DNA from: Klebsiella phage vB_KM5a1-KLB31 | Sequence record: PP582757.1 | Length of the DNA: 64,000 nt | Strand: one strand, 5' to 3' | In this document: positions 30,711-57,080 of the stretch, piece after piece | Layout: every line of letters starts with the position of its first letter | How positions within the stretch are numbered: the first letter of the stretch is position 1 | The notes under the pieces: generated by a model | Seen by the model: only the letters and a program-made list of their open reading frames with translations | Told to the model about the DNA's origin: nothing | Databases searched by the model: none | Program-made: the position numbers and the translations under genes

Positions 30711-30738
30711 AAAAAAGGGAGAGCGTTTGCTCTCCCTT
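30711..30738. terminator. Bidirectional terminator between gene 54 (+) and the alt-downstream ORF (-): GGGAGAGC-GUUU-GCUCUCCC
   Basis: aaaaaagggagagcgtttgctctccctt. Confidence 0.6.
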
Positions 30739-30744
30739 AGGGGT

Positions 30745-31074
30745 TTATTTACGGAAGCCTAAGAATGCAGGCACAACCATATCTGCATCAGGCAATTCAG
30801 CTTCTGATTCAAATTCTTCCATCGGTTTGGCATTGAAGAAAACAGAAATATTAACAGGCGCTTCACTTTCGAATTGACCTGTGATAATACCAGTAAAGAT
30901 ATTATCAGTCTGCGCTTCATTAATGAAGTTTGCTGCTGGTCTGATGTTGAACTGAGCTTTTTCACCAAACACCTTACGAAGTTCAGTAATCAGCATTTCG
31001 TTAAAAGCTGGTTCCACGATACGAACGTTGTCCATGGAAGTTTCAGTGCCGTTAAAACGAATGAATGAACGCAT
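30745..31074 (-). CDS. Hypothetical protein downstream of alt
   Basis: 109 aa. GAGGA Shine-Dalgarno. Has its own early-type promoter just upstream. Confidence 0.5.
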   Translation of the reverse strand: MRSFIRFNGTETSMDNVRIVEPAFNEMLITELRKVFGEKAQFNIRPAANFINEAQTDNIFTGIITGQFESEAPVNISVFFNAKPMEEFESEAELPDADMVVPAFLGFRK

Positions 31075-31094
31075 TTTGATATCCTCACTTGTGA

Positions 31095-31130
31095 TTGAGA
31101 TTACATCATAACACGTTCATTCGGCGTTGT
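31095..31130 (-). promoter_or_regulatory. T4-type early promoter (minus strand: GTTTAC-N17-TATGAT)
   Basis: rc: GTTTACAacgccgaatgaacgtgtTATGATgtaatctcaatcac. Member of the repeated promoter/leader cassette. Confidence 0.45.
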
Positions 31131-31133
31131 AAA

Positions 31134-33239
31134 CTACCCTTCAATAAACTTAGGTGGAGTGTCATCTGGGTCAATAAAGGACGCTAATAGACCAAGTGCT
31201 TCGCGTTTAGCTGCGGCATCATAACCAGAAGAACTAAATGAAGCAAAGCTTACAGGAGCATCCGAATCATCAGTACTGTCCATTGTTACCAGTTCACCAC
31301 TTTCTAGAAGAGCATCGCCATCATAGACTACCATGGATTCGTTCAGAGCATCAGAAGTCATGACTTCCGCCTGGATGAATTTCTGGTTATTGTATTCCAT
31401 GCCATCATTATAAGAAGCATCAGTGATTTTGTTAATCTGGACCATAGTACCACGCGGGAGAATGATTTCCATTTCACCGCCCATATTACTGATATCGCCA
31501 GGATAAACAACGTTAATCTTCTCTGCACCACTAATAGCCCAACCTACCATCATACGAACAACTTCTTCGCCTTTCAACTCGACAACATCAGCCATGATAG
31601 ATGGGACAATAGCTTCTTCGTCATTCTTATCAATGTTAAGAACATTACGAGTATTATCTGACGCCATACCAACGCCAAGATTACCTTTCCAACCACCAAA
31701 GATAATAGGCATCAAAGAAGTTGAAACAAAGTTCCTGAAATAGAATACACGGTTTTTAACCATTGCTTCGTAAATAGGCTTACGAATCGACTGTGCACGC
31801 CATAAGGTAAGACCTTCAGGAATACGATCACCTTTCTTAAATGCATCATCAAGGTTTTTAATAGCAGTGGTTACTTCTTTTTCATTTAATGTATCTTGAG
31901 TAGCATCAGAGAAACGACCTAAGAGCATGTTATTGATGTCATGATAACCAGAGCCGCAATATTCTTTAATACCACGTTTTTCAGCCGGAGTATATTGCTT
32001 AGGCGTACGCATCAAAGTAACTTGATGAATTGTGGATGATACGTTTTTAGCATAACCTTGAAGTAAGTTCTTAATGAAGTTAGTTCTCTTCATGTTCCAC
32101 AGTTTAGTAACTTGGGCTTCTTTTTCTTCTTGAGAACCGAACCAACCACCGTCTTTATATTGCTTATCAAAGAAAGTGACTTTGTGTTCTTCTAGCTTAT
32201 CAAGAGCAGTTTGTATAAATGCCTGCATACTTTCTACAGAAGTCAGGTTATTATTGCCAATACGATTTTCAAGTTCTTTGGCAATAGCACCTTCAAGTTT
32301 CTCCATCTTAGCAGGAGAAATTTTTACCATATCTGAAATACGCCATGATATGCCGGAAGCAGCTAAAGCCGCAGACTGATTTCGAGAAGCTTTAGATGTA
32401 ATGCTAGTTAAGATTTCACCTGCTTCAGGAATAATTTCCGCTGTAGCCGGTTTACTGAATTCAGCCGCACTTTCTTCATATTCTTCGAATTTAGCCGGGT
32501 TATGAATGATATCAGAAGTCAATGACTGGCTTGCTGCAATCTGACGACGAGAAATCTTAGTACGAGAAATAACAGAACGGTCTGAACGTTTTTCTTCTAC
32601 GGCTGCAATAGAACCAGCAATAGCAGTTTCTTTAGTTACCTGTTGTCCGTCTTTTTTGTTTACATAAACTTCGCCGACTTCAGAATCAACTTTGGTATAG
32701 ATGTCCGGGTTAATTCCAGGCATGCCATTGATATCTTCAATCTGAGCATTCTTACGAACAACCAGAATGTAAGTATGTTTGCCAGTGAAATTATACAGAG
32801 CAGGAACAACTTTAAACTTACCACCAGTTTTCTGCATAACCAGACGTTGAATAACACGTTGGACCACAGGACCTTGGCCTTTCATTTTCTTAGTAGGGAA
32901 GCGGAACATTACTGCATCCATACGGAATTTCTTGACCTGTGCATAGACAGTTTCAAAGATGGTATTAATTGAGTCGATAGGGCTCACACCTAACCCACCT
33001 TTCAATTCTGCCGGAGTACCCTTAGCAGATAATGACATCAGGATAACGTGGGCATATTTATCGCCGGCCTTAACCTGTTTAATTGCATCACCTTCAGACG
33101 TATATGAAACCATACGAGCGACGAGATTGCTTTCATCATTACCAATCTTCCAGATTTGCGGCACTTTTAATTTTGGATTCAAGTTCACGACAGCCAGTGT
33201 GCCTTCGCTGTCAAAAACTTCATTCAATTGTTCAGACAT
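31134..33239 (-). CDS. alt: Alt-like ADP-ribosyltransferase (virion-packaged, modifies host RNA polymerase)
   Basis: 701 aa (T4 Alt is 682 aa). Position between gene 54 and the ligase gene. C-terminal ART-like region (R...STS...E pattern: FYFRNFVSTSLMP). A late-promoter-like CATAAATA and AAGAGGAAC Shine-Dalgarno lie upstream. Confidence 0.8.
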   Translation of the reverse strand: MSEQLNEVFDSEGTLAVVNLNPKLKVPQIWKIGNDESNLVARMVSYTSEGDAIKQVKAGDKYAHVILMSLSAKGTPAELKGGLGVSPIDSINTIFETVYAQVKKFRMDAVMFRFPTKKMKGQGPVVQRVIQRLVMQKTGGKFKVVPALYNFTGKHTYILVVRKNAQIEDINGMPGINPDIYTKVDSEVGEVYVNKKDGQQVTKETAIAGSIAAVEEKRSDRSVISRTKISRRQIAASQSLTSDIIHNPAKFEEYEESAAEFSKPATAEIIPEAGEILTSITSKASRNQSAALAASGISWRISDMVKISPAKMEKLEGAIAKELENRIGNNNLTSVESMQAFIQTALDKLEEHKVTFFDKQYKDGGWFGSQEEKEAQVTKLWNMKRTNFIKNLLQGYAKNVSSTIHQVTLMRTPKQYTPAEKRGIKEYCGSGYHDINNMLLGRFSDATQDTLNEKEVTTAIKNLDDAFKKGDRIPEGLTLWRAQSIRKPIYEAMVKNRVFYFRNFVSTSLMPIIFGGWKGNLGVGMASDNTRNVLNIDKNDEEAIVPSIMADVVELKGEEVVRMMVGWAISGAEKINVVYPGDISNMGGEMEIILPRGTMVQINKITDASYNDGMEYNNQKFIQAEVMTSDALNESMVVYDGDALLESGELVTMDSTDDSDAPVSFASFSSSGYDAAAKREALGLLASFIDPDDTPPKFIEG

Positions 33240-35251: not shown

Positions 35252-36081
35252 TATTTGGTGTCCCCATAATAAGCACGAAGGTCGCTTGGTGTTACATTAC
35301 GATAGCTTTCAGGCTTTGGTGCTCGTGGATTAAACGGCCAAACATACGGATAAGGAACATTAATAGGGCGAACCTCAGCCCGACGATCAATTTCTGCCTG
35401 GATGCTTGCCAAAGATTTTGCTGCTTCTTGGCGTTTCAGCTCAATCGCTACTAGATTGTCCCAATCTTTAACCTGAGTACAATCATCCGCATTACCGACG
35501 CGTTCACCACGAACCATCCAGTAAACTGGAGTTCCAAGAATACGATGGGCTGCCTGGCAATGGTGCGGAAGGTCATCAACATAGAACTTAACACGGTTAC
35601 CGTATTTCAGACGGACCTTAGTAAGAATCATTTCCTTACTTTCATTATGGGCACACATCTGGATGTCCTGGAATGCGCCAGGGAACAGAGCATTCAAATT
35701 GAATTGTCTATTCAGACGGGCATCAATAGAATCACCAAGCGCCGTCACGGCTACAAAATCATAGACTTTCTTGAGCTTGTTAATATGACGCAGGGCATCC
35801 ATATAAGGAGCCAGATAACGAATAAAGTCGGAGCAATTGTATTTGTTAATCAGTTGCTCGCCCAATGAGTCATCACAACCAAACAGTGTGCCTGGTTTAA
35901 TGAACTTATCATCCTGAATCATCTCCAGAATATGTTCAAGAGGCAGGTTATATTTCTGAGCGAAATAAGGCAGGCCTGACTGCCAAGACAACAGAACACC
36001 ATCGACGTCTGTTGCAATTACTGGCCTTTCATTTTGGGTCAAAGATGTGGTCATATTTGGTCCAATCAATTTCAGATTCAT
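35251..36081 (-). CDS. HAD-superfamily 5'(3')-deoxyribonucleotidase-like protein (start uncertain: ATG at 36081 or 36054; track start 36180 is TTG inside the upstream ORF)
   Basis: VIATDVDGVLLSW is the DxDGV motif I of HAD 5'(3')-deoxyribonucleotidases. YVDDLPHH is a later acidic motif. Confidence 0.55.
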   Translation of the reverse strand: MNLKLIGPNMTTSLTQNERPVIATDVDGVLLSWQSGLPYFAQKYNLPLEHILEMIQDDKFIKPGTLFGCDDSLGEQLINKYNCSDFIRYLAPYMDALRHINKLKKVYDFVAVTALGDSIDARLNRQFNLNALFPGAFQDIQMCAHNESKEMILTKVRLKYGNRVKFYVDDLPHHCQAAHRILGTPVYWMVRGERVGNADDCTQVKDWDNLVAIELKRQEAAKSLASIQAEIDRRAEVRPINVPYPYVWPFNPRAPKPESYRNVTPSDLRAYYGDTK

Positions 36082-36229
36082 AAGAGACAAAGGCGAATTG
36101 TTGCCCTTGTCGTACACGTTCTTTAATGAGATGCATCGTAATGCAACTGCCAGGGAATTCACGTTGGCTACTTGCGCCAATAGTTATTAATTGTCCTAGT
36201 GGAAACCCACCATTTAAACTGCCAACCAT
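36029..36229 (-). CDS. Hypothetical small protein
   Basis: 66 aa. Very strong ribosome-binding site GAGGTGGATTT-ATG. Confidence 0.45.
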   Translation of the reverse strand: MVGSLNGGFPLGQLITIGASSQREFPGSCITMHLIKERVRQGQQFAFVSYESEIDWTKYDHIFDPK

Positions 36230-36534
36230 AAATCCACCTCACTATAAACATCTTCATTACCATCAGCCCAACGAACAGCATACCAGAAATCGGGTGTGTA
36301 TTTATTCGGAGGCAGAACCATAATAACCCAACCTGGGATAGTTCCTGCACCTGCTTTAGATACAGAGTCGCCGGGCATGAATTTAGGAGGATTAATCATC
36401 AGCATATTGAAGGGCTCCGGTAAAGTCGTCATCACCAATTGAACGAATATCGCAATCATCGAGAATAGCTTCGAACTGGCGACCCTGAACATCATCTTGC
36501 TGCTCCCAAGTAACCCAGGCAGCAGAGGTACCAA
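36214..36534 (-). CDS. Hypothetical small protein (true start probably internal)
   Basis: 106 aa open frame. Internal ATGs would give 60-70 aa. Confidence 0.3.
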   Translation of the reverse strand: MVPLLPGLLGSSKMMFRVASSKLFSMIAIFVQLVMTTLPEPFNMLMINPPKFMPGDSVSKAGAGTIPGWVIMVLPPNKYTPDFWYAVRWADGNEDVYSEVDLWLAV

Positions 36535-36640
36535 ATTCAGTGATAGTCAAATCAACTGATTGAAGACGCTGGGCATGAACATTAGCCATAATAGCAATGT
36601 AACCAAGGTCTTCAGCGCGCGCCATAATGATCTTACTCAT
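36392..36640 (-). CDS. Hypothetical small acidic protein
   Basis: ORF in the 30.x cluster. Start moved to the internal ATG (MSKIIMARAEDLGY) adjacent to the upstream stop. Confidence 0.35.
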   Translation of the reverse strand: MSKIIMARAEDLGYIAIMANVHAQRLQSVDLTITEFGTSAAWVTWEQQDDVQGRQFEAILDDCDIRSIGDDDFTGALQYADD

Positions 36641-36837
36641 TCTTCCACCTCTACCCAATCAGGGAACACGAAGAAATCGGGTGCATCAACCATATAGCAG
36701 ACTTTGTCGTCTTTCACTAGGCAACCCAAGACTTCGACCATTTCGTTATTCTGAAGACAACGAGCCAATTTTGATGCACGAGATTTAGATGTCATAACAA
36801 CCATAATATTTTCCTCAGATTTTAGTAGCAGAAACAA
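36637..36837 (-). CDS. Hypothetical small protein
   Basis: 66 aa ORF in the 30.x cluster. Confidence 0.3.
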   Translation of the reverse strand: MFLLLKSEENIMVVMTSKSRASKLARCLQNNEMVEVLGCLVKDDKVCYMVDAPDFFVFPDWVEVEE

Positions 36838-37012
36838 GATTCAAATCAGACCAATAACCGACCGGATTAAGCGCCTCAATTTTTTCATTGATTCGCTTTT
36901 CAAGATTTTCCCAAGGCCATACGGTAATAGTTGATTCAAAAGTATCTTCAATCAGACCTTGGGAATGAGGGTGGTCAGAGACCACCTCAAATTTAAGTAA
37001 ATATTTTGCCAT
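36815..37012 (-). CDS. Hypothetical small protein
   Basis: 65 aa ORF in the 30.x cluster. Confidence 0.35.
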   Translation of the reverse strand: MAKYLLKFEVVSDHPHSQGLIEDTFESTITVWPWENLEKRINEKIEALNPVGYWSDLNLVSATKI

Positions 37013-37368
37013 TAGATAATGAACTCGGTTGATACTACGTCCCAGATTGCTTCACGTTGTTCTTCAGTAGTTTTCTGACCAAGAACATGGCGAAGATAAA
37101 GTTTGACCAGAAGCTGACGATTATCGCCATGCCATGATGGGTGAGAATCAAAATCACGAGTACGAACTTCATCATGTAGGCCAACTTTGATTGTCGAACC
37201 TTTGATTGAAACATCTAAGCAAGGACCGTTTTCAAAAGCGAAGAAGCAGTAGTTGTCCATGTGATACATGTCAATCTGAGCAACTGTGCCATTGTTGTGT
37301 TTCCACAGCAGAATTGGAGATTGACCTGCATCATTCACATATTTGCGTTCGAAGTTGTTGAAGTTCAT
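37012..37368 (-). CDS. Hypothetical protein
   Basis: Start set at the internal ATG (MNFNNFERKYV), because the upstream part of the track ORF is occupied by an early promoter. Confidence 0.45.
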   Translation of the reverse strand: MNFNNFERKYVNDAGQSPILLWKHNNGTVAQIDMYHMDNYCFFAFENGPCLDVSIKGSTIKVGLHDEVRTRDFDSHPSWHGDNRQLLVKLYLRHVLGQKTTEEQREAIWDVVSTEFII

Positions 37369-37384
37369 TTTGTTATCCCGTTTA

Positions 37385-37440
37385 AGTAGTTTGCTGATTG
37401 AGTGTACATAATACCACACTCAATCAGCGTTGTAAACTGT
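37385..37440 (-). promoter_or_regulatory. Early promoter with the -10 embedded in a 12-bp perfect palindrome
   Basis: rc: GTTTACAacgCTGATTGAGTGTggTATTATgtACACTCAATCAG. The arms ctgattgagtgt and acactcaatcag flank TATTAT. Confidence 0.5.
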
Positions 37441-37925
37441 TAATCGAACTTAATTTCAGATACTACACGAGCTGTTGTTTCTAAACGGAAAATGTTGACT
37501 TCAGTCCCAGGAACATTGCCTTTAAGAACAAATTCTGCATGTTCTTTTGCTTTAGACAAAGTGAAACGAGTAGGAGTGGCACCACCTACAGTGTAAACTT
37601 CACCTGGGCTTGTCACTACGACAATGCGGTCTTCTACATCATCTGCCACTTTAACTTCAGTGAACAATTCCCACTCATCTTTATAGAACCATGATGCAGA
37701 CCATTCTTCTTCTTTAAAGTGAGGCAGGGCTTCTAGGCGAGAAATAGTCTCACCACCTTCAAATCGAATCTCAAAGACACCATCAGAATCGCCGTCTTCA
37801 AAAGAAACCACTTCAAACTTACGACCACGCAAATAGGCTACGATTCCACGATTAAGTTTTGAGGCCAGACGAATAAATTCATCAACGTTCTTTTCTTCGA
37901 GCACGTACCACTTATTCAGTTCCAT
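37440..37925 (-). CDS. Hypothetical protein
   Basis: 161 aa ORF in the 30.x cluster. Confidence 0.5.
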   Translation of the reverse strand: MELNKWYVLEEKNVDEFIRLASKLNRGIVAYLRGRKFEVVSFEDGDSDGVFEIRFEGGETISRLEALPHFKEEEWSASWFYKDEWELFTEVKVADDVEDRIVVVTSPGEVYTVGGATPTRFTLSKAKEHAEFVLKGNVPGTEVNIFRLETTARVVSEIKFD

Positions 37926-37932
37926 ATTTTTC

Positions 37933-38403
37933 TCACTTAAATTTAGTTGAAACTACTTTAGGCTCTTTGCGAGTTGTCATACGATCGATACCTTTGAAGA
38001 CAATAACAGTGTCATCAGGATGGTTTTTAAGCCACATCTCGCCATAAGCCACAGCATCATCATAGCTTTTGTTCTTTTCACGAATCAAGTAGCCTGGCAC
38101 CTCTGGAGAACAAACCAGACAACCATAATCGTTTTCGCCTACTTCTTCGAACAAATGGAATTCAGAATCAAATGAGATAATCACGCCATTCATTTCGCCA
38201 CGCAGCGAATAAGTATCGTGAACTCGAACTTGACCATTTTCGTTCTTTACACCGACTTTCGTCACAGAACCAGACTGCCGCGTTTCAATGACGATAAATT
38301 CGCCACTTAAAACATCAACATACTTAATGTTTTGTGTTGCAGAGTTAATGAATGATTCACGTGATTCCTCATCTTTAAAGCGATAAGTCTTTTGTACTTG
38401 CAT
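37933..38403 (-). CDS. Hypothetical protein
   Basis: 156 aa ORF in the 30.x cluster. A UUCG hairpin (38422-38437) sits between it and the upstream gene. Confidence 0.5.
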   Translation of the reverse strand: MQVQKTYRFKDEESRESFINSATQNIKYVDVLSGEFIVIETRQSGSVTKVGVKNENGQVRVHDTYSLRGEMNGVIISFDSEFHLFEEVGENDYGCLVCSPEVPGYLIREKNKSYDDAVAYGEMWLKNHPDDTVIVFKGIDRMTTRKEPKVVSTKFK

Positions 38404-38435
38404 TTTAGTTTCCTCAATTAAGAGCCCGAAGGCTC

Positions 38436-38801
38436 TTAACGGACTTTAGTCCAGTTAGTCAAATCAATTTTACCGGCTTTCTTAATCTTTTCAATTAGAT
38501 TGTCAGCACGAGTACGGCCGTTTTCATACCAAACAACATCTTCTGAACAATCTTCATCTTCATAAGTCTCAGAACGAATATGACCATGAATTGTGGTTTT
38601 CAATGCGTAGATTTCACCAGTGAAGAAGTTCTCAACAGTGATATGCCATGCAAAATCATCAGAAGGACCATCAGGAGTCATACAATGAACTACATCACCT
38701 TGATACTTGCTTACCATCCACTGTAACTCATTTACGGTCTGTGCTTTATAACCGTCATGGTCTTTGCATTTCACTGTAGCGTTCAGATTGATGATTGTCA
38801 T
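38436..38801 (-). CDS. Hypothetical protein
   Basis: 121 aa ORF. Leader ...acATGGAGAcuuaaaaAUG carries a GGAG Shine-Dalgarno. Confidence 0.5.
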   Translation of the reverse strand: MTIINLNATVKCKDHDGYKAQTVNELQWMVSKYQGDVVHCMTPDGPSDDFAWHITVENFFTGEIYALKTTIHGHIRSETYEDEDCSEDVVWYENGRTRADNLIEKIKKAGKIDLTNWTKVR

Positions 38802-38814
38802 TTTTAAGTCTCCA

Positions 38815-38852
38815 TGTTGATTGAGTGTACATCATATCACAATCCTAGGAGA
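38815..38852 (-). promoter_or_regulatory. Early promoter (minus strand: GTTTAC-N17-TATGAT) plus conserved leader
   Basis: rc: GTTTACttctcctaggattgtgaTATGATgtacactcaatcaacATGGAGA. Confidence 0.5.
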
Positions 38853-38871
38853 AGTAAACACCGCCATGAAA

Positions 38872-38900
38872 ACAAAAATGGGAACCACTAGGGTTCCCAT
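38872..38900 (-). terminator. Terminator (minus strand: AUGGGAACC-loop-GGUUCCCAU plus UUUUUGU). An identical copy follows gene 32
   Basis: Plus strand acaaaaatgggaaccactagggttcccat. The identical 29-mer recurs at 57046-57074. Confidence 0.6.
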
Positions 38901-38904
38901 AACA

Positions 38905-39090
38905 TTATACTGCGCGTGGCTTACCAAAGCAAGCTGCATCTGCACGTAGAACTGCACGAGCACGAGCTTGAAGTTTGCTTACCAGCTGATTGATACGCTT
39001 GTTGGACCCACGCTTGTAGCCAGCGCGTTTAGAATCACCAACAACCACTTTTTCTACTTTCTTTGCTTTAGCTTGTTTAGCCATTTTCAT
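38905..39090 (-). CDS. Small highly basic protein (about 59-61 aa; start at ATG 39090 or 39084)
   Basis: M(KM)AKQAKAKKVEKVVVGDSKRAGYKRGSNKRINQLVSKLQARARAVLRADAACFGKPRAV. The first codon of the track ORF (39135) is TTG and lies in a hairpin. GGAAG Shine-Dalgarno precedes the ATG at 39084. Confidence 0.4.
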   Translation of the reverse strand: MKMAKQAKAKKVEKVVVGDSKRAGYKRGSNKRINQLVSKLQARARAVLRADAACFGKPRAV

Positions 39091-39375
39091 CTTCCATTTC
39101 GGAGAAATACATGGGAGCCAACAACTCTCCCGCAAGCCCTCGAGGGGTACGTTTAAACTCTTATCTGTTGCACGCCGTTAGCTTAAAGGGTCCGGGTCCG
39201 ATTTCTCGAGGATAAGATATACACCGATGGATGTATAGGCCTTGAGGCGTACTCCCAATTAGCCATCGCCTTGGGGTAGCATGCACTTGCCGTTTATTTC
39301 AAGTTCGCACTTTAGTAGCGTTCACTGAAGGTTTTGACTTATTTAACGTCGGGATAACCTACAACCATGACATCA

Positions 39376-39621
39376 TTACTTCAGCGTAACCACATAATGG
39401 CGAACTGCTTTACGAGCAGCACTGCACAGTGGATATGCATATTTTAGTACATCTTGTGCCTGAAGCGTATCACGCAGAGTAGCCTGTACAGGATTCAGAT
39501 GTTTAAAGCCGGACAGAACAGACAGAATTTCTGCTTGAACATCAATGCTTGCACCATAGTTATCGTGGCCTGCATTCCATGCTTTATGTTGAAGATCTAG
39601 AGCGTTAGTGATAATAGACAT
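39376..39621 (-). CDS. rIII: Lysis-inhibition accessory protein RIII
   Basis: 81 aa (T4 RIII is 82 aa). DLQHKAWNAGHDNYGASIDVQAEILSVL resembles T4 RIII. Position adjacent to gene 31, as in T4. Confidence 0.65.
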   Translation of the reverse strand: MSIITNALDLQHKAWNAGHDNYGASIDVQAEILSVLSGFKHLNPVQATLRDTLQAQDVLKYAYPLCSAARKAVRHYVVTLK

Positions 39622-39735
39622 TATTCATCCTCAAAATGAGGTTAATATAGATGGAGCCCCGTAACCCTCATGGTACGGCGCATCTCCACCACGTAGAAGA
39701 GGCTAGCGTCATCTGACATTCGACTCTTCATAATT

Positions 39736-40059
39736 TTATTTATACAAGCAAGGAATTGCTTTGTAATGGCAGGTCACAAATTTCTGTTTAATGTCCTTGG
39801 CTTTACGAACACCAAGTGCAACCAGAGGATGTGGAACGTTTGCAATTTTACCTACCGGAATAGGAGTCAAATCACCAACTTCACAGAAACCTTCTGGGAC
39901 ATCAGGACCAATTGAATAAACTTCACACATCTCAGGCAATTCGCCTTGATGTAATTTACCAATCACAATACCACTTGCGGTAACTTCTTCGTCGCCTGCT
40001 TGTTTAGGCTCAGAAACCAGAATAATGTATTCACCTACTGCTTTAATTGGAAGTTCCAT
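39736..40059 (-). CDS. 31: Co-chaperonin gp31 (GroES analogue)
   Basis: 107 aa. [48 protein letters not shown], and C-terminus [16 protein letters not shown] identical to T4 gp31. Confidence 0.9.
39738..39745 (-). promoter_or_regulatory. Candidate late promoter TATAAATA (minus strand) upstream of rIII, inside the 3' end of gene 31
   Basis: Plus-strand tatttata is TATAAATA on the minus strand, about 115 nt upstream of the rIII ATG. Confidence 0.35.
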
Positions 40060-40084
40060 TATTAATCCATATCATTGGGTTATG

Positions 40085-40116
40085 TACTAATAATAACACA
40101 CAACCCATAAAGCAAA
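40085..40116 (-). promoter_or_regulatory. Candidate MotA-dependent middle promoter of gene 31 (MotA box TTTGCTTTA, 12-nt spacer, TATTAT)
   Basis: rc: aaTTTGCTTTAtgggttgtgtgtTATTATtagtacataacccaat. Short inverted repeat tgggtt/aaccca flanks the -10. T4 gene 31 is known to use a middle promoter. Confidence 0.4.
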
Positions 40117-41239: not shown

Positions 41240-42235
41240 TTAAATAGCCTTTTGATTAATATAAGACAGAAGCTCTTCAGTATGTTCCCAACCAATACAG
41301 GCATCTGTAATAGAAACACCATAGAGCATATTATCAGAAATCTTTTGATTTCCTTCATGTAGATTAGATTCTATCATAATACCTTTGACAAAGGCGTTAT
41401 CTGCTACCAATCTGCCAACATGAAGTTGATTTGAGAAATAACCGGTCGCATTAGCATGACTACAGTCAACCATAACGTTATGATTAAGACTTTGAGCTGA
41501 AGCAGCAACTACGGCTTCATTAATATCGGACTCTGAATAATTAGGTCCTTCACTACCACCACGCAATACGATATGGGTATTAACATTGCCTTCGGCATGA
41601 ACGATACCTACTTTACCATCATGGTCCATACCCATATAACGATGCGGATACGCCGCAGAAAGAATTGCATCAGTAGCAACCTTAACAGAACCATTTGTTC
41701 CATTTTTAAAGCCAACGCACATAGGCAGGCCTGAAGCAATTTCACGGTGAGTCTGGCTCTCGGTTGTACGAGCACCGATTGCGACCCAAGAGAAAATACC
41801 TGTAAGATACTTAATCGTGAATGGGTCTAACACTTCAGTCGCTAGTGGCAGGCCTAAGCTTAATAGTTCTAAGCAAAGTTCACGAGCCATTTCGAGCCCA
41901 CGGTTTATGTCAAATGAGCCATTCAATTCTGGGTCATTAATGAAACCTTTCCAACCTACAGTTGTTCTTGGTTTCTCAAAATAAACACGCATAACCAAAA
42001 GAAGATTTGGAAATTGTTTTTGTACTTCGGCTAAACGTTCACCGTATTCGAGAGCAGCTTTAGGGTCATGAATTGAACAAGGGCCTACAACAATAATTTT
42101 GCGTGGGTCTTCGCCATTCATAATCGAATTTACTTGTTCACGATGAGCAGCAACTTGTTTTTCAAGTGCCACCGTCAAAGGATATGTTTCAACCAATGTT
42201 TTTGGAGAAATTAGTGATTCGACTAATGGTAGCAT
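41240..42235 (-). CDS. 3-deoxy-D-arabino-heptulosonate-7-phosphate (DAHP) synthase, class I alpha (AroG/AroF/AroH-like)
   Basis: 331 aa. IIVVGPCSIHDP, MRVYFEKPRTTVGWKGFINDP, IGARTTESQTHREIASGL, GFKNGTNGS and VSITDACIGWE are near-identical to the E. coli AroG core motifs. Confidence 0.85.
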   Translation of the reverse strand: MLPLVESLISPKTLVETYPLTVALEKQVAAHREQVNSIMNGEDPRKIIVVGPCSIHDPKAALEYGERLAEVQKQFPNLLLVMRVYFEKPRTTVGWKGFINDPELNGSFDINRGLEMARELCLELLSLGLPLATEVLDPFTIKYLTGIFSWVAIGARTTESQTHREIASGLPMCVGFKNGTNGSVKVATDAILSAAYPHRYMGMDHDGKVGIVHAEGNVNTHIVLRGGSEGPNYSESDINEAVVAASAQSLNHNVMVDCSHANATGYFSNQLHVGRLVADNAFVKGIMIESNLHEGNQKISDNMLYGVSITDACIGWEHTEELLSYINQKAI

Positions 42236-42244
42236 TATTTTACC

Positions 42245-42496
42245 TTAATTTTTATAAACGGAAACCGATTCTACTCGACCATCCATATGTCTAACGATAT
42301 TATAATATTCTTCTGAATAAGCAAGAGTATCTTTTTCGCCTTTTTCAATGGTAATCAAATATGAAACAGGACTTTCTTGTTGAACGCGCACTTTTACGTC
42401 ATCACGTCGTTCAGAGATTTTATTAATCAGGGCCTGAGCAAACTGAGGGATTGCTGCGGCGAATTCTTCGATAGAAAACTGTTTATCTGAAATCAT
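42245..42496 (-). CDS. Hypothetical protein
   Basis: 83 aa ORF. ATGA-coupled within the cd-pseT accessory cassette. Confidence 0.4.
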   Translation of the reverse strand: MISDKQFSIEEFAAAIPQFAQALINKISERRDDVKVRVQQESPVSYLITIEKGEKDTLAYSEEYYNIVRHMDGRVESVSVYKN

Positions 42497-42771
42497 GCTA
42501 CGGCCACCTGTACTGAATTAGCATCATAGTCCACTGTAACAAAAACATACAGCGGTTCGGTATCGCCACAATCAATTTCTACTTCGCAAGTAGAAACAAA
42601 AGAAGTATGATTAATAGATACTTTCTGAACATCAGGAGCCAGAATAGCTAGTGCGCCAGTTACTTCAGCATGAACTTTAAGTTCGCCCGGGACATCACGT
42701 TTAGTCAGGCAATGATTACCAAGGACCTGACGGAATACCATACTTACTAATTCAGAATATTTAGGGAACAT
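42493..42771 (-). CDS. Hypothetical protein
   Basis: 92 aa ORF in the cd-pseT accessory cassette. Confidence 0.4.
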   Translation of the reverse strand: MFPKYSELVSMVFRQVLGNHCLTKRDVPGELKVHAEVTGALAILAPDVQKVSINHTSFVSTCEVEIDCGDTEPLYVFVTVDYDANSVQVAVA

Positions 42772-42781
42772 TTTGTTTTCC

Positions 42782-43030
42782 TCAATGGACAGTGTGAACT
42801 ACGACACGAACAACGAATGCTACTACAGGGTCGTTGATTGGTGGGAACTCAACGTAATATTCTCCCTGATAGCGTTTGTTCAGGTCAGTACGGATTTCAG
42901 CAATAGCATTAATCAACGCAGGGTTGAATACTGCACCTTGGAGCTTACGAAGCATTTTATAGGCTTCTTGCTCGACTTCATGATGTTTATCGTACATATC
43001 ATTTTCCTCATATGACCGGAAGTGCATCAT
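42782..43030 (-). CDS. Hypothetical protein
   Basis: 82 aa. First gene after the early promoter at 43018-43060. AGGAAAATGAT Shine-Dalgarno then ATG. Confidence 0.4.
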   Translation of the reverse strand: MMHFRSYEENDMYDKHHEVEQEAYKMLRKLQGAVFNPALINAIAEIRTDLNKRYQGEYYVEFPPINDPVVAFVVRVVVHTVH

Positions 43031-43057
43031 ATCACATACTTCCGGCGTTGTAAACAG

Positions 43058-43060
<3 letters not shown>
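43018..43060 (-). promoter_or_regulatory. Early promoter with the -10 inside an 8-bp perfect palindrome
   Basis: rc: GTTTACAacgCCGGAAGTatgtgaTATGATgcACTTCCGGtcatATGAGGAA. Confidence 0.5.
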
Positions 43061-44117
<1,057 letters not shown>

Positions 44118-45284: not shown

Positions 45285-45772
45285 AACTTTTTGATAACCT
45301 CTACGATATCGTCACGAGATAGGCCATTAACCAGAACATGACGAGCAGATTCAGATTGGACTTTATGGCTGTTATCGATAAGCTCTGCAACTTCGTCTGA
45401 AGAAAGTGTGCTGTGAGCGATACCGAGACGATTGAACTTATCTGTAAGTGGGTCACAGATAATGTAGAATTTATGCCCATCAATATGGACATTAGGCTGA
45501 CTGATGTTAATGAACACCTCAGCATTAGGCAGGTTGTTGGACAAGAACTCAACCATTGTATCAACCGCCTGGGGCATTGCTTCGCGACGTTCTTCGGTCT
45601 GCTTTGTGCTATAAGCTTTCTGTTTGACCTTTTGAGCCAATTTGCGGCCGAGTGTTAAACGAAGGTCAGAGAGAAAACCTACACGCTTCGTTCCTTTATA
45701 TACACTGATTCCGTCATGACGATCGCCAAATTCGGTTACTACCATGTCATTAGAGATAAGCTGTAAATTCAT
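45275..45772 (-). CDS. Hypothetical protein; second Alc candidate (immediately downstream of rnlA)
   Basis: 165 aa. Has its own early promoter at 45781-45830. Confidence 0.4.
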   Translation of the reverse strand: MNLQLISNDMVVTEFGDRHDGISVYKGTKRVGFLSDLRLTLGRKLAQKVKQKAYSTKQTEERREAMPQAVDTMVEFLSNNLPNAEVFINISQPNVHIDGHKFYIICDPLTDKFNRLGIAHSTLSSDEVAELIDNSHKVQSESARHVLVNGLSRDDIVEVIKKLCK

Positions 45773-45780
45773 ATTAATTT

Positions 45781-45830
45781 CCTCATGATTGGGTGTAAGG
45801 ACATTCTATCACACCTTACACCCATTGTAA
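45781..45830 (-). promoter_or_regulatory. Early promoter with the -10 inside a 10-bp palindrome
   Basis: rc: GTTTACAatGGGTGTAAGGtgtgaTAGAATgtCCTTACACCCaatcATGAGGA. Confidence 0.45.
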
Positions 45831-45831
45831 A

Positions 45832-46983
45832 CTACTCTTCAACAACTTTAATTGTTGAGTATTCAGCTGGAACCAGAGTCTTGTGTTCTTTCATGAAAAC
45901 AGACGAGATTCGTTCGACAACTTTATCATAGTCGATACCATTACCGAAAGCCATCATAATGATGCCAAACAGACCAGGTTTAGACTTCAAGACTGTCTGA
46001 GCAGTTACAGCATAATCTTTACGATCTTTGCCGGCGATAACAGCATAAAGTGATTCGAGTTCTGCAAGAGATTCTGTCAGATAGTCACGATAGATGTCTT
46101 CGAAGGTTTCGATTTTTCTGATAGCATAATCGTCGCCAAAGAACATTGCCTTGATATCGTCAGAACCACCTGCAATAATCACTTCAAACAGGCGTTGGTT
46201 ATTGTTGATTGAATCTTTAGTGTGGTGCAGTGCACTGTACCATTTAGTTTTCAGTTTAAATTTCTGGCCTGATTCGAGTTCAAAGATAAACCCTTCGATA
46301 CCTTCTTGGGCTCGGATTTCTTCAATGAAGTCTTCGTTGCTCGTATCAAAGTCATAACCACGAACCAGATAAGGACGAAGAACACCGTCTTTAAAAAGCT
46401 CTGTGTACGGAACGTATTCGCCTGTATCATTTTCACGAACGTTGAGCAGAATCAGATTTCGGTCTTGATAATCAAGAACGATTCGATTTGTCGGAGCAAC
46501 ATACTCAAAGTTACAAGTAAAACCATTTTTAGCGAGTTCAGACACACGTTCTTTAAATGCATCATTGCTTGGAGCGGAAATCCATTGGAGAGCTTCGGCG
46601 GCCTGTTGGCTATAAACAGAAGTCTTTGACTTCATGCCAAGACGACCTTTGTCAATATAAGAAGAGATAAGAGAACCATCTTCTTTAGCCATTGCCAAGA
46701 CGACTTTGGTCAGGTCTAACCCAATAGTGAAAGGACATTCATTAAGGTTAAAGAACTTTTCCATTGGACGAGATGCGATACGGACTGGTTTATCACCATC
46801 CATTTCAAACATGATGCCACGGCATTCTAAAGCAGAAGGCTCAAGCCAATCAGTGTAAGAAGCTAAATGATAGCTGAACACGCGGAAATCAGTATCAAGA
46901 GCAGATTTAAAATCTTTGAAGAAGAACTTAGTTTTATCGCGTTCAGTTACAGCCATCAGTTCATTGAATAATTTTTGCATCAC
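45832..46983 (-). CDS. rnlA: RNA ligase 1
   Basis: 383 aa. ALECRGIMFEMDGDKPVRIASRPMEKFFNLNE (adenylation Lys motif) and NFEYVAPTNRIVL match T4 Rnl1. Confidence 0.9.
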   Translation of the reverse strand: MMQKLFNELMAVTERDKTKFFFKDFKSALDTDFRVFSYHLASYTDWLEPSALECRGIMFEMDGDKPVRIASRPMEKFFNLNECPFTIGLDLTKVVLAMAKEDGSLISSYIDKGRLGMKSKTSVYSQQAAEALQWISAPSNDAFKERVSELAKNGFTCNFEYVAPTNRIVLDYQDRNLILLNVRENDTGEYVPYTELFKDGVLRPYLVRGYDFDTSNEDFIEEIRAQEGIEGFIFELESGQKFKLKTKWYSALHHTKDSINNNQRLFEVIIAGGSDDIKAMFFGDDYAIRKIETFEDIYRDYLTESLAELESLYAVIAGKDRKDYAVTAQTVLKSKPGLFGIIMMAFGNGIDYDKVVERISSVFMKEHKTLVPAEYSTIKVVEE

Positions 46984-53905: not shown

Positions 53906-54138
53906 CGTTCTTCCCACCATTCAAATACAGTGATTTCTTTAGAGAAGGCATCAGAGTCAATGAACTCGCCATCTTCATCATATAATGTAATGCAAATCAT
54001 AGGATGAACGCATTCACCTTCAGAAGCACAATATGCTTCTTCTACAGCATCTTTTAAGATTTGTGGTTTTACGCCAAGGAAAATCTTTTCGACTTCCAGG
54101 TCACCACGATTATTACGCCATTCAACAAGAGTAATCAT
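53893..54138 (-). CDS. Hypothetical small protein
   Basis: ORF with a GGGGA Shine-Dalgarno before the internal ATG at 54138. Confidence 0.35.
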   Translation of the reverse strand: MITLVEWRNNRGDLEVEKIFLGVKPQILKDAVEEAYCASEGECVHPMICITLYDEDGEFIDSDAFSKEITVFEWWEERCSN

Positions 54139-54139
54139 A

Positions 54140-54355
54140 TTATCCCCAAAGGTCTTCAATCATTTCGAATTCATCTACAAACCAATAACCTTCTTGTTCA
54201 TAGATATCAAGTGGAACATACAAAACAGTACGGCCGTTAGGAGTTCCACCTGCCTGTAAAGTTCGAATTATATCGCCTTTCATGACATGATACAATTGCC
54301 CTGCTACAAGATATTTCTCGCAGTCTTTAGGGACCGGAACGAAGTTAATTTGCAT
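54140..54355 (-). CDS. Hypothetical small protein
   Basis: 71 aa ORF in the frd-32 cluster. Confidence 0.35.
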   Translation of the reverse strand: MQINFVPVPKDCEKYLVAGQLYHVMKGDIIRTLQAGGTPNGRTVLYVPLDIYEQEGYWFVDEFEMIEDLWG

Positions 54356-54594
54356 CAGCGCACCTCGATATAAGCAACATATTTAGGAAGAATATAACCA
54401 TCATCACCTTCACCAATAGCAAAGCGATAGTTATTCCCACGACCTTGTTCCCATACTAAAGTCACAGTATGAAGGGTTCCATAGGTGGTTTCAATAACAA
54501 ACGGCTCATCATAAGCTTCGTTTGAATAAAGCGTATCCAAACAAAAATCAGGTCCAATTTTAACCAGACGAATATCTTTATATTCGAGTTCCAT
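54355..54594 (-). CDS. Hypothetical small protein
   Basis: 79 aa ORF in the frd-32 cluster. Confidence 0.35.
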   Translation of the reverse strand: MELEYKDIRLVKIGPDFCLDTLYSNEAYDEPFVIETTYGTLHTVTLVWEQGRGNNYRFAIGEGDDGYILPKYVAYIEVR

Positions 54595-55208: not shown

Positions 55209-55486
55209 TATTTCTTCGCCTTAGCAAGTTTGAATGCAGCTTTGAAAGCAGGAACATCGTCGATGTCAATCATGAAGCCACAACCCATACCTTCTTCATA
55301 AAGAGGGCAAAGGTCACAATAGTCATGCCAGGTTTTCTCTTTACCGCCAATTGAGAAGCCAGTGTCCATTGCACATAGGATGTCCTCAACACGTTCGAGT
55401 TCTTCTGGATTCTTATCATGAATACAGAACAGCCATTTGCCACGATATTCAGAACCTAAGTTAATGCTTTCACGTTGAAGTTTCAT
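55208..55486 (-). CDS. Hypothetical Cys-rich small protein
   Basis: 92 aa from the AGGAG-preceded ATG. Contains CIHD...CDLCPL...GCGF. Confidence 0.4.
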   Translation of the reverse strand: MKLQRESINLGSEYRGKWLFCIHDKNPEELERVEDILCAMDTGFSIGGKEKTWHDYCDLCPLYEEGMGCGFMIDIDDVPAFKAAFKLAKAKK

Positions 55487-55489
55487 TTT

Positions 55490-55550
55490 AATCTCCTTGT
55501 TGGTGTAAGAGTATAGTAACATGCTCCTACACCGTTGTACACTATCTTTT
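55490..55550 (-). promoter_or_regulatory. Early-type promoter (GTGTAC -35 variant, TACTAT -10) with an imperfect inverted repeat flanking the -10
   Basis: rc: GTGTACAacGGTGTAGGAGcatgtTACTATaCTCTTACACCaacaAGGAGAttaaaATG. Confidence 0.4.
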
Positions 55551-55784: not shown

Positions 55785-55999
55785 GCCATCTCCAGAATTT
55801 CGTTGATGTAAAAAGGGCGAACTTTAGAATTCAGATAGAATTCATCAATGAAGTCGATCAGATTATCAGAAGGACCAGTGATAGTTGCTAACTTAGCATA
55901 GGCTTCACCTACCATTTTCACTTCTAGCTTAACGTTGTACTGAGAAGCAACTTCTTCCGCACGAGCTACATTGTTCACTACGATTTCTAAAGTTTTCAT
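55781..55999 (-). CDS. Hypothetical small protein
   Basis: 72 aa ORF. GGAGAAC Shine-Dalgarno. Confidence 0.4.
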   Translation of the reverse strand: MKTLEIVVNNVARAEEVASQYNVKLEVKMVGEAYAKLATITGPSDNLIDFIDEFYLNSKVRPFYINEILEMA

Positions 56000-56004
56000 T
56001 TTAG

Positions 56005-56058
56005 TTCTCCATGTTGGTGTAGAAGCATAATAACCTGTTTCTACACCGTTGTAAACTA
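56005..56058 (-). promoter_or_regulatory. Early promoter with the -10 inside a 9-bp palindrome
   Basis: rc: GTTTACAacGGTGTAGAAacaggtTATTATgcTTCTACACCaacATGGAGAactaaaATG. Confidence 0.5.
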
Positions 56059-56424
56059 CTTAATGAAATTCTTTTTGATCAAATCAATCATAGCTTCAAA
56101 GTTGGATTGATTGACTTCGATAGTCATTGAAATCAGACCACCTTTATTTGAAACTTCAGAACCTTCTACAACTTCTTCAAAGTAGCAGAATTCTTCTGAG
56201 CAAAGCTCGAAGTAATCGTCACCACTATCATCAGAACGATAGATTTCGCCATTCTTAGTGCGAATTTTGTTCACGAAAGACCCATCACAGAAGCTTGTAT
56301 CAAGAACAGTGAATGTTCCTCCACCTTCTTCAATCAGGTTAACCATGTGTTCATTGTTACTGTTTTCATCAATGAATTGCTGGCGGAGTGTTGGGATTAA
56401 ACGGTATACTTTGCCTTCTTTCAT
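56056..56424 (-). CDS. Hypothetical acidic protein
   Basis: 122 aa ORF in the frd-32 cluster. Confidence 0.4.
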   Translation of the reverse strand: MKEGKVYRLIPTLRQQFIDENSNNEHMVNLIEEGGGTFTVLDTSFCDGSFVNKIRTKNGEIYRSDDSGDDYFELCSEEFCYFEEVVEGSEVSNKGGLISMTIEVNQSNFEAMIDLIKKNFIK

Positions 56425-56678: not shown

Positions 56679-56900
56679 TTAAGCCTCGATGCTTTCAAGA
56701 GTTTCAGCTTTCATTTCAGGGTCCATACCGACCATGTACTCAGCACGAAGATAATCTTCGATAGTGCAGATGTCACCTTCGATTGTGACCTGAGAATCAA
56801 TCCAACCATGTTCACAAGCAACTTCTTTCAGTTTGTAACGCTCAAGGCAGGTTTCGTTGAAGTATTCATAATCACATACGCTTAAAGTAATACGAGCCAT
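56679..56900 (-). CDS. Hypothetical small protein (first gene after the promoter at 56915-56960)
   Basis: 73 aa from MARITLS. CUGGAGAUACAAAA-AUG Shine-Dalgarno. Confidence 0.4.
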   Translation of the reverse strand: MARITLSVCDYEYFNETCLERYKLKEVACEHGWIDSQVTIEGDICTIEDYLRAEYMVGMDPEMKAETLESIEA

Positions 56901-56914
56901 TTTTGTATCTCCAG

Positions 56915-56960
56915 TTTGTTGGTGTAGGAGCATAATAACCTGTTTTAAAGTCGTTGTAAA
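56915..56960 (-). promoter_or_regulatory. Early promoter (GTTTAC-N17-TATTAT) plus conserved CTCCTACACCAACA leader
   Basis: rc: GTTTACAacgactttaaaacaggtTATTATgctcctacaccaacaaactGGAGA. Confidence 0.5.
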
Positions 56961-56980
56961 CACCTTTGTGCAAAACCCCC

Positions 56981-57045
56981 TAATGGCACATATAAGTTAC
57001 ATTATCCGCAAAAAGTGGGCTTAATGTAACTTATATGTGCCATTA
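56981..57045. repeat. Perfect 24-bp inverted repeat with a 17-nt spacer (taatggcacatataagttacatta ... taatgtaacttatatgtgccatta)
   Basis: The right arm is the exact reverse complement of the left arm. Located between the gene 32 terminator and the next early promoter. Confidence 0.8.
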
Positions 57046-57074
57046 ACAAAAATGGGAACCACTAGGGTTCCCAT
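57046..57074 (-). terminator. Gene 32 terminator; identical copy of the 38872-38900 terminator
   Basis: acaaaaatgggaaccactagggttcccat lies 7 nt after the gene 32 stop. On the minus strand it reads as hairpin plus UUUUUGU. Confidence 0.65.
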
Positions 57075-57080
57075 TCATTA

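Follow-up and report, generated by a model that had tools for sequence, protein, structure and literature searches.

Hairpin-embedded early promoters of Klebsiella phage vB_KM5a1-KLB31 as PeSL-type cassettes with a probable role in read-through RNA

T4-like phages carry repeated intergenic cassettes, termed PeSLs, that combine an early promoter with a stem-loop. Arbiol et al. (2010) divided them into five subclasses by stem-loop position, the commonest lying between the -35 and -10 elements or overlapping the -10, and reported stems with marked G·T pairs (PMC2839356). One RB49/phi1 stem-loop cut lacZ expression about as much as rrnB T1, and it is only for RB49/phi1 examples that terminator and strong promoter activity have been shown, using lacZ fusions (PMC2839356). 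Comeau et al. (2014) extended PeSLs to T4/PST and KVP40/nt-1, drew the PST/T4 stem-loops just upstream of the promoter, and added PmSLs, which carry Mot-box promoters (PMC4122927). A related arrangement is found at the T4 genes e, soc, 49, and I-TevI, where a promoter lies in the DNA for the 5' strand of a helix that sequesters the Shine-Dalgarno (SD) sequence or AUG; long read-through transcripts fold and are poorly translated, and transcripts from the embedded promoter are without the 5' strand (Uzan and Miller 2010, PMC3014915). Here, we analyzed a 64,000-nucleotide stretch of Klebsiella phage vB_KM5a1-KLB31 (PP582757.1; the window), in which the -10 elements of several early promoters lie inside short palindromes. 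The original prediction, made from the sequence alone, could assign these palindromes to no described element. They match PeSLs (Arbiol et al. 2010, PMC2839356), and the single MotA-type variant matches PmSLs (Comeau et al. 2014, PMC4122927); the window cassettes are new members, in another genus, of an already described element. Our preferred reading, to which we give a probability of roughly 0.65, is that they are PeSL-type composite cassettes whose hairpin forms in read-through RNA at the cistron boundary.

The window contains eight early promoters and one MotA-type promoter, all on the minus strand (as are all cassette features below) and all in tiny gaps between early genes. Sites are named by the minus-strand coordinate at which the -35 starts: 31134, 37437, 38859, 43055, 45832, 55542, 56056, and 56961, plus the MotA-type 40116, which is named by its Mot box. 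The motif GTTTAC-N15-19-TATNAT has six exact minus-strand matches (31105-31134, 37408-37437, 38831-38859, 43026-43055, 56027-56056, and 56932-56961) versus 0.22 expected. Close variants are 45803-45832, with the -10 TAGAAT, and 55513-55542, with GTGTAC and TACTAT, giving an early-promoter form across the window of GTTTAC-N17/18-TAnnnT; the MotA box within 40090-40116 has the arrangement TTTGCTTTA-N12-TATTAT. At least nine minus-strand sites sharing GTTTAC(A)-N17-TAT(T/G)AT had been proposed; of the nine listed, six stand as exact, two are only near variants, and one is the variant already named as MotA-type. At four of them, the limits originally drawn (31095-31130, 38815-38852, 45781-45830, and 56915-56960) clip the -35 by 1-7 nt. 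The promoter consensus, GTTTACAAcg-N-caTGtTAttAT, is of the sigma-70 type with hexamers ~17 bp apart. The proposed common leader, TACAC(T/C)CAA(T/C)CA followed by an SD and ATG, was recovered at the sites as tACACyCAAyCA ... GGAG/GAGG ... ATG, with the SD and ATG 25-45 nt after the -10, and together with the GTTTAC -35, it supports the T4-type early promoter identity. At 31134, 37437, 43055, 45832, 55542, and 56056, the upstream stop codon lies 3 nt or less from the -35 or overlaps it. AT content in the 20 nt 5' of the -35, which is coding sequence here, is 64%, compared with 59% genome-wide and 56% further upstream.

The spacer can pair with the sequence right after the -10 in five early promoters and at the MotA-type site, and the six sites predicted to have reverse-complementary flanks are thereby borne out. 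The focal cassette (37360..37442) lies between an open reading frame (ORF)-224 homologue and gene 30.7. Reading along the minus strand, it consists of a TAA stop (37440-37442), the -35 GTTTAC (37432-37437), a 5' arm (37416-37428), the -10 TATTAT (37408-37413) within the loop, a 3' arm (37393-37405), an SD (37376-37379), and an ATG (37366-37368). Its arms, GCTGATTGAGTGT / ACACTCAATCAGC, form 13 perfect bp, one above the original listing. With a G·U closing pair, the hairpin reaches -23.6 kcal/mol and an RNA fold z of -5.4. The arms are kept in the Edwardsiella phage PEi20, the Enterobacter phage CIP9, and the Kosakonia phage 305; the Enterobacter phage IME523 has one A·C mismatch. PEi20 (Straboviridae, Tevenvirinae, Kanagawavirus) is 95.7% identical to window positions 36000-40000, and its segment 97432-161325 aligns with the whole window at 96-98%. 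The other three are the next relatives at ~83% identity. Across the window, seven of the nine sites have an RNA fold z of -2 or below.

Two layouts of the pairing are distinguished. Class A has a 3' arm beginning 1-3 nt past the -10, which sits within a loop of 8-14 nt, and leaves the SD uncovered. In class B, a 5' arm directly after the -35 (often CTCC...) pairs with the SD region across loops of 25-45 nt. The 5' arm lies at about -30 to -17 in both. Pairing that would mask the SD and/or AUG was found at 31134 (z -3.8), weakly at 38859, and at PEi20 62906, 44257, and 73784, and at none of the five class A sites. A third layout was observed at PEi20 13891, 65205, and 9747 (loci L002 and L003), where the 5' arm overlaps or follows the -10, as in TGATGACCT / AGGTCATCA, and the 3' arm extends over both the SD and the ATG; in this case, RNA started at the promoter itself may be partly structured.

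The complementarity between spacer and leader exceeds chance in all three data sets compared. In an exact permutation of partners among the nine window sites, cognate duplexes averaged -15.1 kcal/mol versus -8.7 kcal/mol over all pairings, and 6 of 362,880 permutations were as low as the real arrangement. Seven of the nine sites reached -13 kcal/mol or lower, versus 2.7% of shuffled spacers. For a genome-wide survey, the PEi20 genome was assembled and 37 strict early promoters were taken, all of them on the early-gene strand and mostly beside small hypothetical ORFs. Their consensus is GTTTACAAcg...caTGtTAttATg.tCcTACAC.AAcA...GGAG...ATG. Duplexes of -10 kcal/mol or lower occurred at 23 of the 37, clearly above the 10.1 ± 2.2 for permuted partners (maximum 19 in 20,000), and 54% of promoters reached -13 kcal/mol or lower versus 1.7% of shuffled spacers. 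Because many cassettes share the consensus arms GGTGTAGGA / TCCTACACC, partner permutation is a conservative control; 26% of non-cognate PEi20 pairs also reach -10 kcal/mol or lower. T4 early promoters show the same excess, with 19 of 40 at or below -10 kcal/mol versus 6.5 ± 2.0 permuted. Proximal duplexes were found at 8 of 39 T4 promoters (0.9 ± 0.9 permuted), and duplexes that include the SD at 10 of 39 (p about 1e-4 on the mean), with regB, dexA, denV, and alc among them. Splitting the classes by cutting the leader at 16 nt broke class B helices and under-counted them, and SD-anchored duplexes were used in its place.

The pairing was also followed in orthologous promoters. Paralogous class A sites permit no fixed-column alignment, as their arm register differs by inspection (summed arm positions 13 to 19). 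A search of viral contigs for the alc orthologue returned six loci, enough for a small covariation table and not for a deep alignment. The alc promoter (45832) bears a short-loop palindrome in the window and PEi20; the partner of the spacer is instead the SD in IME523, CIP9, Kosakonia phage 305, the loci L011 and L012, and T4. The SD-pairing arms of five lineages are CCCATTTTGTT / AACAAAATGGG; CCCCGTTTTGTT (one G·U); CCTCATTTCGTT / AACGAAATGAGG; CTCCATTTCGTT / AACGAAATGGAG; and, in T4, AAGTCC[C]TCGTGTT / AACATGAGGACTT. Across four distinct alc-promoter orthologues, 12 of 12 pairs are formed in each, with double compensatory changes at three pairs and one-sided changes at two, both yielding G·U; slid controls were 35-54% paired. 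The T4-type locus L013 was excluded from this count owing to its different pairing register. Orthologues of 56056 also exchange pairs in concert, from GAA/TTC in the window to GGAG/CTCC in Kosakonia phage 305 and GGAG/CTCT with a G·U in IME523 and CIP9. The arms of 43055, CCGGAAGT / ACTTCCGG, show no change in four relatives, whereas the flanks and even the -10 differ. The original prediction had argued that arms differing between copies yet co-varying point to a structural role over a sequence-specific operator, and this argument is upheld by the advantage of cognate over non-cognate arms and by the compensatory changes among orthologues.

We next consider the molecule in which the stem forms. 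Giving G·T and A·C equal penalties, we scored 46 distinct helices from T4, PEi20, and relatives of the latter. Their internal stem mismatches were G·U on the mRNA-sense strand in 13 cases and A·C in 2, with no other kind (p=0.004), or about 10 to 2 without paralogous duplicates. Since a sense-strand G·U is a C·A on the opposite strand, this bias favors a sense-strand RNA helix over a two-sided cruciform. Judging from promoter geometry, the cassette's own transcript would start ~7 nt after the -10 and would thus be devoid of the 5' arm, such that read-through RNA from the upstream gene would be the sole molecule able to form the hairpin. The position of the 5' arm argues against one proposal of the original prediction, a hairpin in the promoter's own nascent RNA; read-through RNA fits instead. 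The 3' arm belongs to the leader and directly follows the -10 in class A or coincides with the SD and start codon in class B. In read-through RNA, the hairpin would mark the cistron boundary, where read-through may be attenuated or ended or the 3' end of the upstream message protected. Protection could follow cleavage by RegB (reviewed in PMC3014915) at the GGAG ~5 nt downstream of the hairpin. A class B hairpin would additionally hide the downstream ribosome-binding site, and the gene of each cassette would be expressed mainly from its own unstructured transcript. We infer an RNA-level role as an intercistronic attenuator, a 3'-end hairpin, or a ribosome-binding-site mask. The G·U excess, the variable loops (8 to about 45 nt) and arm register relative to the -35 and -10, the 3' arms on SD and AUG, and the presence of hairpins where upstream terminators are absent favor such a role over a cruciform.

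The placement of hairpins relative to upstream genes suggests why a -10 should come to lie within a palindrome. In PEi20, the upstream stop is 7 nt or less from the -35 in 23 of 37 promoters, its TAG often overlapping the G of GTTTAC. Class A hairpins occur at 15 of the 23 promoters whose -35 abuts a stop, compared with 1 of the 14 whose gap measures at least 25 nt (Fisher p=0.0006). Of these 14 gaps, 9 or 10 contain a GC-rich hairpin of their own, in many cases with a tetraloop and T-run. The same division is seen in the window, where a canonical terminator (38878-38900 and 57050-57076) precedes just two promoters, 38859 and 56961, the same two that lack a significant embedded hairpin. Nearly every early gene boundary carries a hairpin, which shifts into the promoter where the space outside is too small. 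Because the upstream stop abuts or overlaps the -35, the promoter spacer is the only freely variable DNA for a 5' arm, and the location of the -10 within a palindrome is best read as a by-product of compaction.

More tentatively, Tevenvirinae in general, T4 included, may use embedded hairpins to distinguish transcripts by their origin, in that only read-through RNA would fold and the cassette's own RNA would stay open. If so, read-through RNA would be truncated or stabilized at the boundary in class A, or made untranslatable and RegB-resistant at its GGAG ribosome-binding site in class B, and each early gene would constitute an autonomous, pulse-expressed module.

Several observations weigh against a read-through RNA hairpin with one defined role. 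The 8 nt after class A stems average 1.4 T and 3.5 A, and the lack of a U-run makes efficient intrinsic termination doubtful. A terminator scan that finds the terminators at 30715-30738, 38878-38900, and 57050-57076 does not flag the embedded hairpins. For class B taken alone, support in PEi20 is only moderate (p=0.006 for the mean and p=0.14 for the count). The interchange of classes at the orthologous alc promoter, with class A giving no SD masking, means that no single function is proven. A map of T4 RNA ends was not found in the literature searched, and the starts used here derive from promoter geometry. Under a strict terminator pattern, the relation between hairpin presence and an upstream terminator was not significant (Fisher; 2/23 vs 1/14); this pattern missed most gap hairpins and was replaced by the stop-to--35 distance and direct folding of the gaps. 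Finally, the published link between PeSLs and indels is not evident, as about 2 of 13 ORF-size indels relative to IME523, CIP9, and Kosakonia phage 305 in the 30-58.5 kb region adjoin a cassette, close to chance.

That last count bears equally on a different explanation, in which the palindromes are recombination substrates for PeSL-mediated shuffling, mini-circles, or small inversions and any RNA function is secondary. Precedent exists in the mini-circle crossovers that Arbiol et al. placed inside PeSLs, one of them within the loop (PMC2839356). In our data, an ORF has been inserted exactly at the junction of the pseT stop and the -35 in IME523 and CIP9, one replaced segment is bounded by cassettes 56056 and 56961, and the loop of a nearby 20-bp inverted repeat is flipped relative to PEi20. 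The T4 RefSeq record also annotates positions 133300-133313 of NC_000866 (locus L017), a 14-nt misc_feature, as 'inverted complement of previously reported sequence; corrects the early promoter Pe133295'. This interval is the -10-containing loop between the arms GGTAGAG / CTCTACC, and a loop inversion, whether real or a sequencing artefact, was therefore once recorded there. Exchange between cassettes, however, needs shared sequence, whereas it is within-copy complementarity that is conserved, and the G·U bias points to RNA. We regard recombination as an unlikely primary explanation.

The original prediction had also listed structure in DNA, as a cruciform or displaced-strand hairpin. On such a reading, an extruded cruciform or a hairpin in a single-stranded DNA intermediate would present or hide the -10 and tune the promoter, for example with supercoiling or at early shut-off. 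At the focal site, either DNA strand is able to fold (-14.8 kcal/mol each, z about -6), the -10 falls exactly in the loop, and the shut-off of T4 early promoters is described as incompletely understood (PMC3014915). Elsewhere, the DNA hairpins are weak, at -7 to -8 kcal/mol. Cruciform extrusion requires short central spacers, and the loops here are 8-14 nt in class A and extend to about 45 nt in class B and at 31134. Moreover, in the open complex, a 5' arm at about -30 to -17 remains duplex. The 13 to 2 preponderance of mismatches that are G·U on the sense strand and C·A on the other, the variable arm register relative to the -35 and -10, and the frequent coincidence of 3' arms with the RNA signals SD and AUG also disfavor this proposal, which we consider quite improbable.

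Very little probability attaches to the view that the palindromes are a functionless mutational by-product, generated by templated quasi-palindrome correction through strand switching and by duplication of a palindromic master cassette. Templated correction of this kind was classically described in T4, and the consensus GGTGTAGGA...TCCTACACC, common to many copies, indicates that complementarity is partly inherited, in line with the quarter of non-cognate pairs noted above. Cognate pairs nevertheless far exceed non-cognate pairs; unrelated arm sequences exist (CCGGAAGT, CTGATTGAGTGT, and CTCCTTTTAGT); arms stay invariant while neighboring bases drift; hairpins are located where separate upstream hairpins are absent; and an asymmetry between G·U and A·C is unexpected from DNA-templated correction. 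The most remote of the explanations is that the inverted repeat serves as an operator, recognized by a dimeric DNA-binding protein of the phage or its host. Dyad symmetry centered on a promoter element is typical of operators, and a subfamily of copies does share GGTGTAG / CTACACC, but arm sequence, length (6-13 bp), spacing (8-45 nt), and register differ while complementarity is kept by compensatory change, and a common operator would pair non-cognate arms as well as cognate ones, contrary to observation.

The remaining class A cassettes share the organization of the focal one. Between pseT and an ORF-236 homologue (42989..43058; RNA fold z -2.0), 43055 has its -35 at 43050-43055, the 5' arm CCGGAAGT at 43038-43045, the -10 at 43026-43031, the 3' arm ACTTCCGG at 43016-43023, an SD at 43005-43009, and an ATG at 42995-42997. 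In IME523 and CIP9, a 190-nt ORF sits exactly between the pseT stop and this -35 (window 43055-43058; L006 15551-15742 and L007 15785-15973), one of the few indels adjoining a cassette. The alc cassette, 45832, lies between rnlA and alc (45764..45835; z -2.95). A TAG stop overlaps the G of its -35 (45827-45832), which is followed by the 5' arm GGGTGTAAGG (45814-45823), the -10 TAGAAT (45803-45808), the 3' arm CCTTACACCC (45791-45800), an SD (45780-45784), and an ATG (45770-45772). Between an ORF-260 homologue and frd.1 (55478..55545; z -2.9), 55542 comprises the -35 GTGTAC (55537-55542), the 5' arm GGTGTAGGAG (55524-55533), the -10 TACTAT (55513-55518), the 3' arm CTCTTACACC with one G·U (55502-55511), an SD (55493-55496), and an ATG (55484-55486). 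For 56056, between frd.2 and an ORF-261 homologue (55991..56059; z -3.5), the -35 is at 56051-56056, the 5' arm GGTGTAGAA at 56039-56047, the -10 at 56027-56032, the 3' arm TTCTACACC at 56016-56024, the SD at 56007-56010, and the ATG at 55997-55999. The MotA-type (middle) promoter 40116, with its PmSL-like hairpin, is situated between 31.1 and 31 (40051..40116; z -2.9) and is the sole Mot-box site in the window with such pairing. Its Mot box TTTGCTTTA (40108-40116) is followed by the 5' arm TGGGTTGTGT (40098-40107), the -10 TATTAT (40090-40095), the 3' arm ACATAACCCA with one G·U (40076-40085), and an ATG (40057-40059).

Site 31134 is located between alt and alt.-3 (31063..31137), with its -35 at 31129-31134 and its -10, TATGAT, at 31105-31110. 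Here, a strand made up of the spacer, -10, and early leader (~31092-31122) base-pairs with a downstream stretch that takes in the SD (31082-31086), the ATG (31072-31074), and codons 2-4 (31063-31071). The resulting helix has three segments and ~24 imperfect bp, with an energy of -29.5 kcal/mol (RNA fold z -3.8); its PEi20 counterpart pairs in a shifted register, CGAATGAATG / CATTCATTCG. After alt.-3, the leftward early unit is closed by the canonical intrinsic terminator AAGGGAGAGC-AAAC-GCTCTCCCTT plus a T-run (30715-30738, minus), an example of the form that genuine terminators take in this genome. The cassette between 30.9 and 30.8 (38793..38900) has a canonical terminator, ATGGGAACCCTAGTGGTTCCCAT and a T-run (38878-38900), before the promoter 38859 (-35 at 38854-38859, -10 at 38831-38836, ATG at 38799-38801). 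Only a weak, interrupted pairing of CTCC..GATTG (38840-38851) with CAATC..GGAG (38810-38823, SD included) is seen there, and it is not significant (z +0.3). The cassette upstream of frd.3 (56892..57076) likewise has the gene 32 terminator (57050-57076) before promoter 56961 (-35 at 56956-56961, -10 at 56932-56937, SD at 56909-56912, ATG at 56898-56900), and no embedded palindrome was found at this promoter (RNA fold z +0.45). The terminator ATGGGAACCCTAGTGGTTCCCAT with its T-run occurs identically after 30.9 (38878-38900) and after gene 32 (57050-57076), both on the minus strand, as a repeated terminator cassette. Between the gene 32 terminator and the frd.3 promoter (56981-57045, minus) lies a perfect 20-bp inverted repeat, GGCACATATAAGTTACATTA ... 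TAATGTAACTTATATGTGCC, that encloses a loop of 17 nt. Relative to PEi20, this loop is present as its exact reverse complement (agcccactttttgcgga vs tccgcaaaaagtgggct), from which it follows that a small segment has flipped between two phages that are 96-98% identical.

The minus strand of the window is the classical T4 early/middle block, encoding alt, 30, 30.x, rIII, 31, cd, pseT, alc, rnlA, denA, nrdB, nrdA, td, frd, and 32. Four segments (31544-32438, 42496-42725, 43974-44116, and 53930-54410) gave no megablast alignment to PEi20, although their flanks match it at 96-98% identity. One segment lies inside alt, and they resemble local replacements or fast-diverging stretches. A 1-kb gene at 41240-42253, annotated in PEi20 as phospho-2-dehydro-3-deoxyheptonate aldolase, is also present in CIP9 and precisely missing from IME523 and Kosakonia phage 305. 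PEi20 encodes an arabinose-5-phosphate isomerase and a phosphoheptose isomerase elsewhere; together with the aldolase, these hint at a phage-encoded sugar pathway.

Compared with described systems, the cassettes are closest to PeSLs. Both are repeated intergenic elements of T4-like phages with the order stop, sigma-70-type early promoter, G·T-containing stem-loop, SD, and ATG, present in many copies among small early genes (37 strict copies in PEi20). They differ in the -35, which is GTTTAC here, as in T4, rather than TTGACA, and in the stems, which in RB49 consist of G-runs and C-runs and here are of mixed sequence (GGTGTAGGA-type and others). The window hairpins also have no U-run, and terminator activity has been measured for RB49/phi1 only. 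Unlike the published PST/T4 stems, which stand upstream of the promoter, the pairing reported here joins spacer and leader in about half of T4 early promoters. With PmSLs, the comparison is to Vibrio phage nt-1, which shares the Mot box (TGCTT), the -10 (TATTAT), and a stem-loop as at window 40076-40116; the window holds one example, from a different genus and known here from sequence. The masks of T4 e, soc, 49, and I-TevI have a geometry in common with class B (window 31134 and, weakly, 38859; PEi20 62906, 44257, and 73784; T4 regB, dexA, denV, and alc). Those genes, however, have late promoters that delay expression to late infection, whereas the promoters here are early and their masking is predicted, and the class A hairpins, which form the majority of the sites originally listed, do not cover the SD. 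Intrinsic terminators resemble the cassettes in placing a hairpin directly after the stop codon, but the embedded hairpins lack a U-rich tail and have larger loops (8-14 nt) and less GC-rich stems. In the hairpin promoters of the phage N4 virion RNA polymerase and the single-strand promoters of conjugative plasmids, such as F Frpo, what is recognized is the hairpin itself, within single-stranded or extruded DNA. These also combine a promoter with a DNA hairpin, whereas the cassettes have an ordinary duplex -35 and -10, and the evidence points towards an RNA hairpin.

The whole window gave no Rfam match at the gathering score. The published text of the PeSL papers does not mention covariation, ribosome-binding-site masking, translation, or read-through, and the T4 transcription review does not mention promoter-embedded stems. 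The use of this arrangement at early promoters, its covariation, and the class A/class B interchange at alc are not described in the PeSL papers or T4 reviews searched. As far as that literature shows, our results give the first statistical and covariation support for selection on PeSL stems. With no U-runs and a subset of hairpins masking the next ribosome-binding site, the published "terminator" label may be incomplete, and the signal at about half of T4 early promoters makes the question directly testable in the best-studied phage. The comparison extends the PeSL class to the Kanagawavirus group, where the cassettes can be used in annotation as reliable markers of early-gene boundaries.

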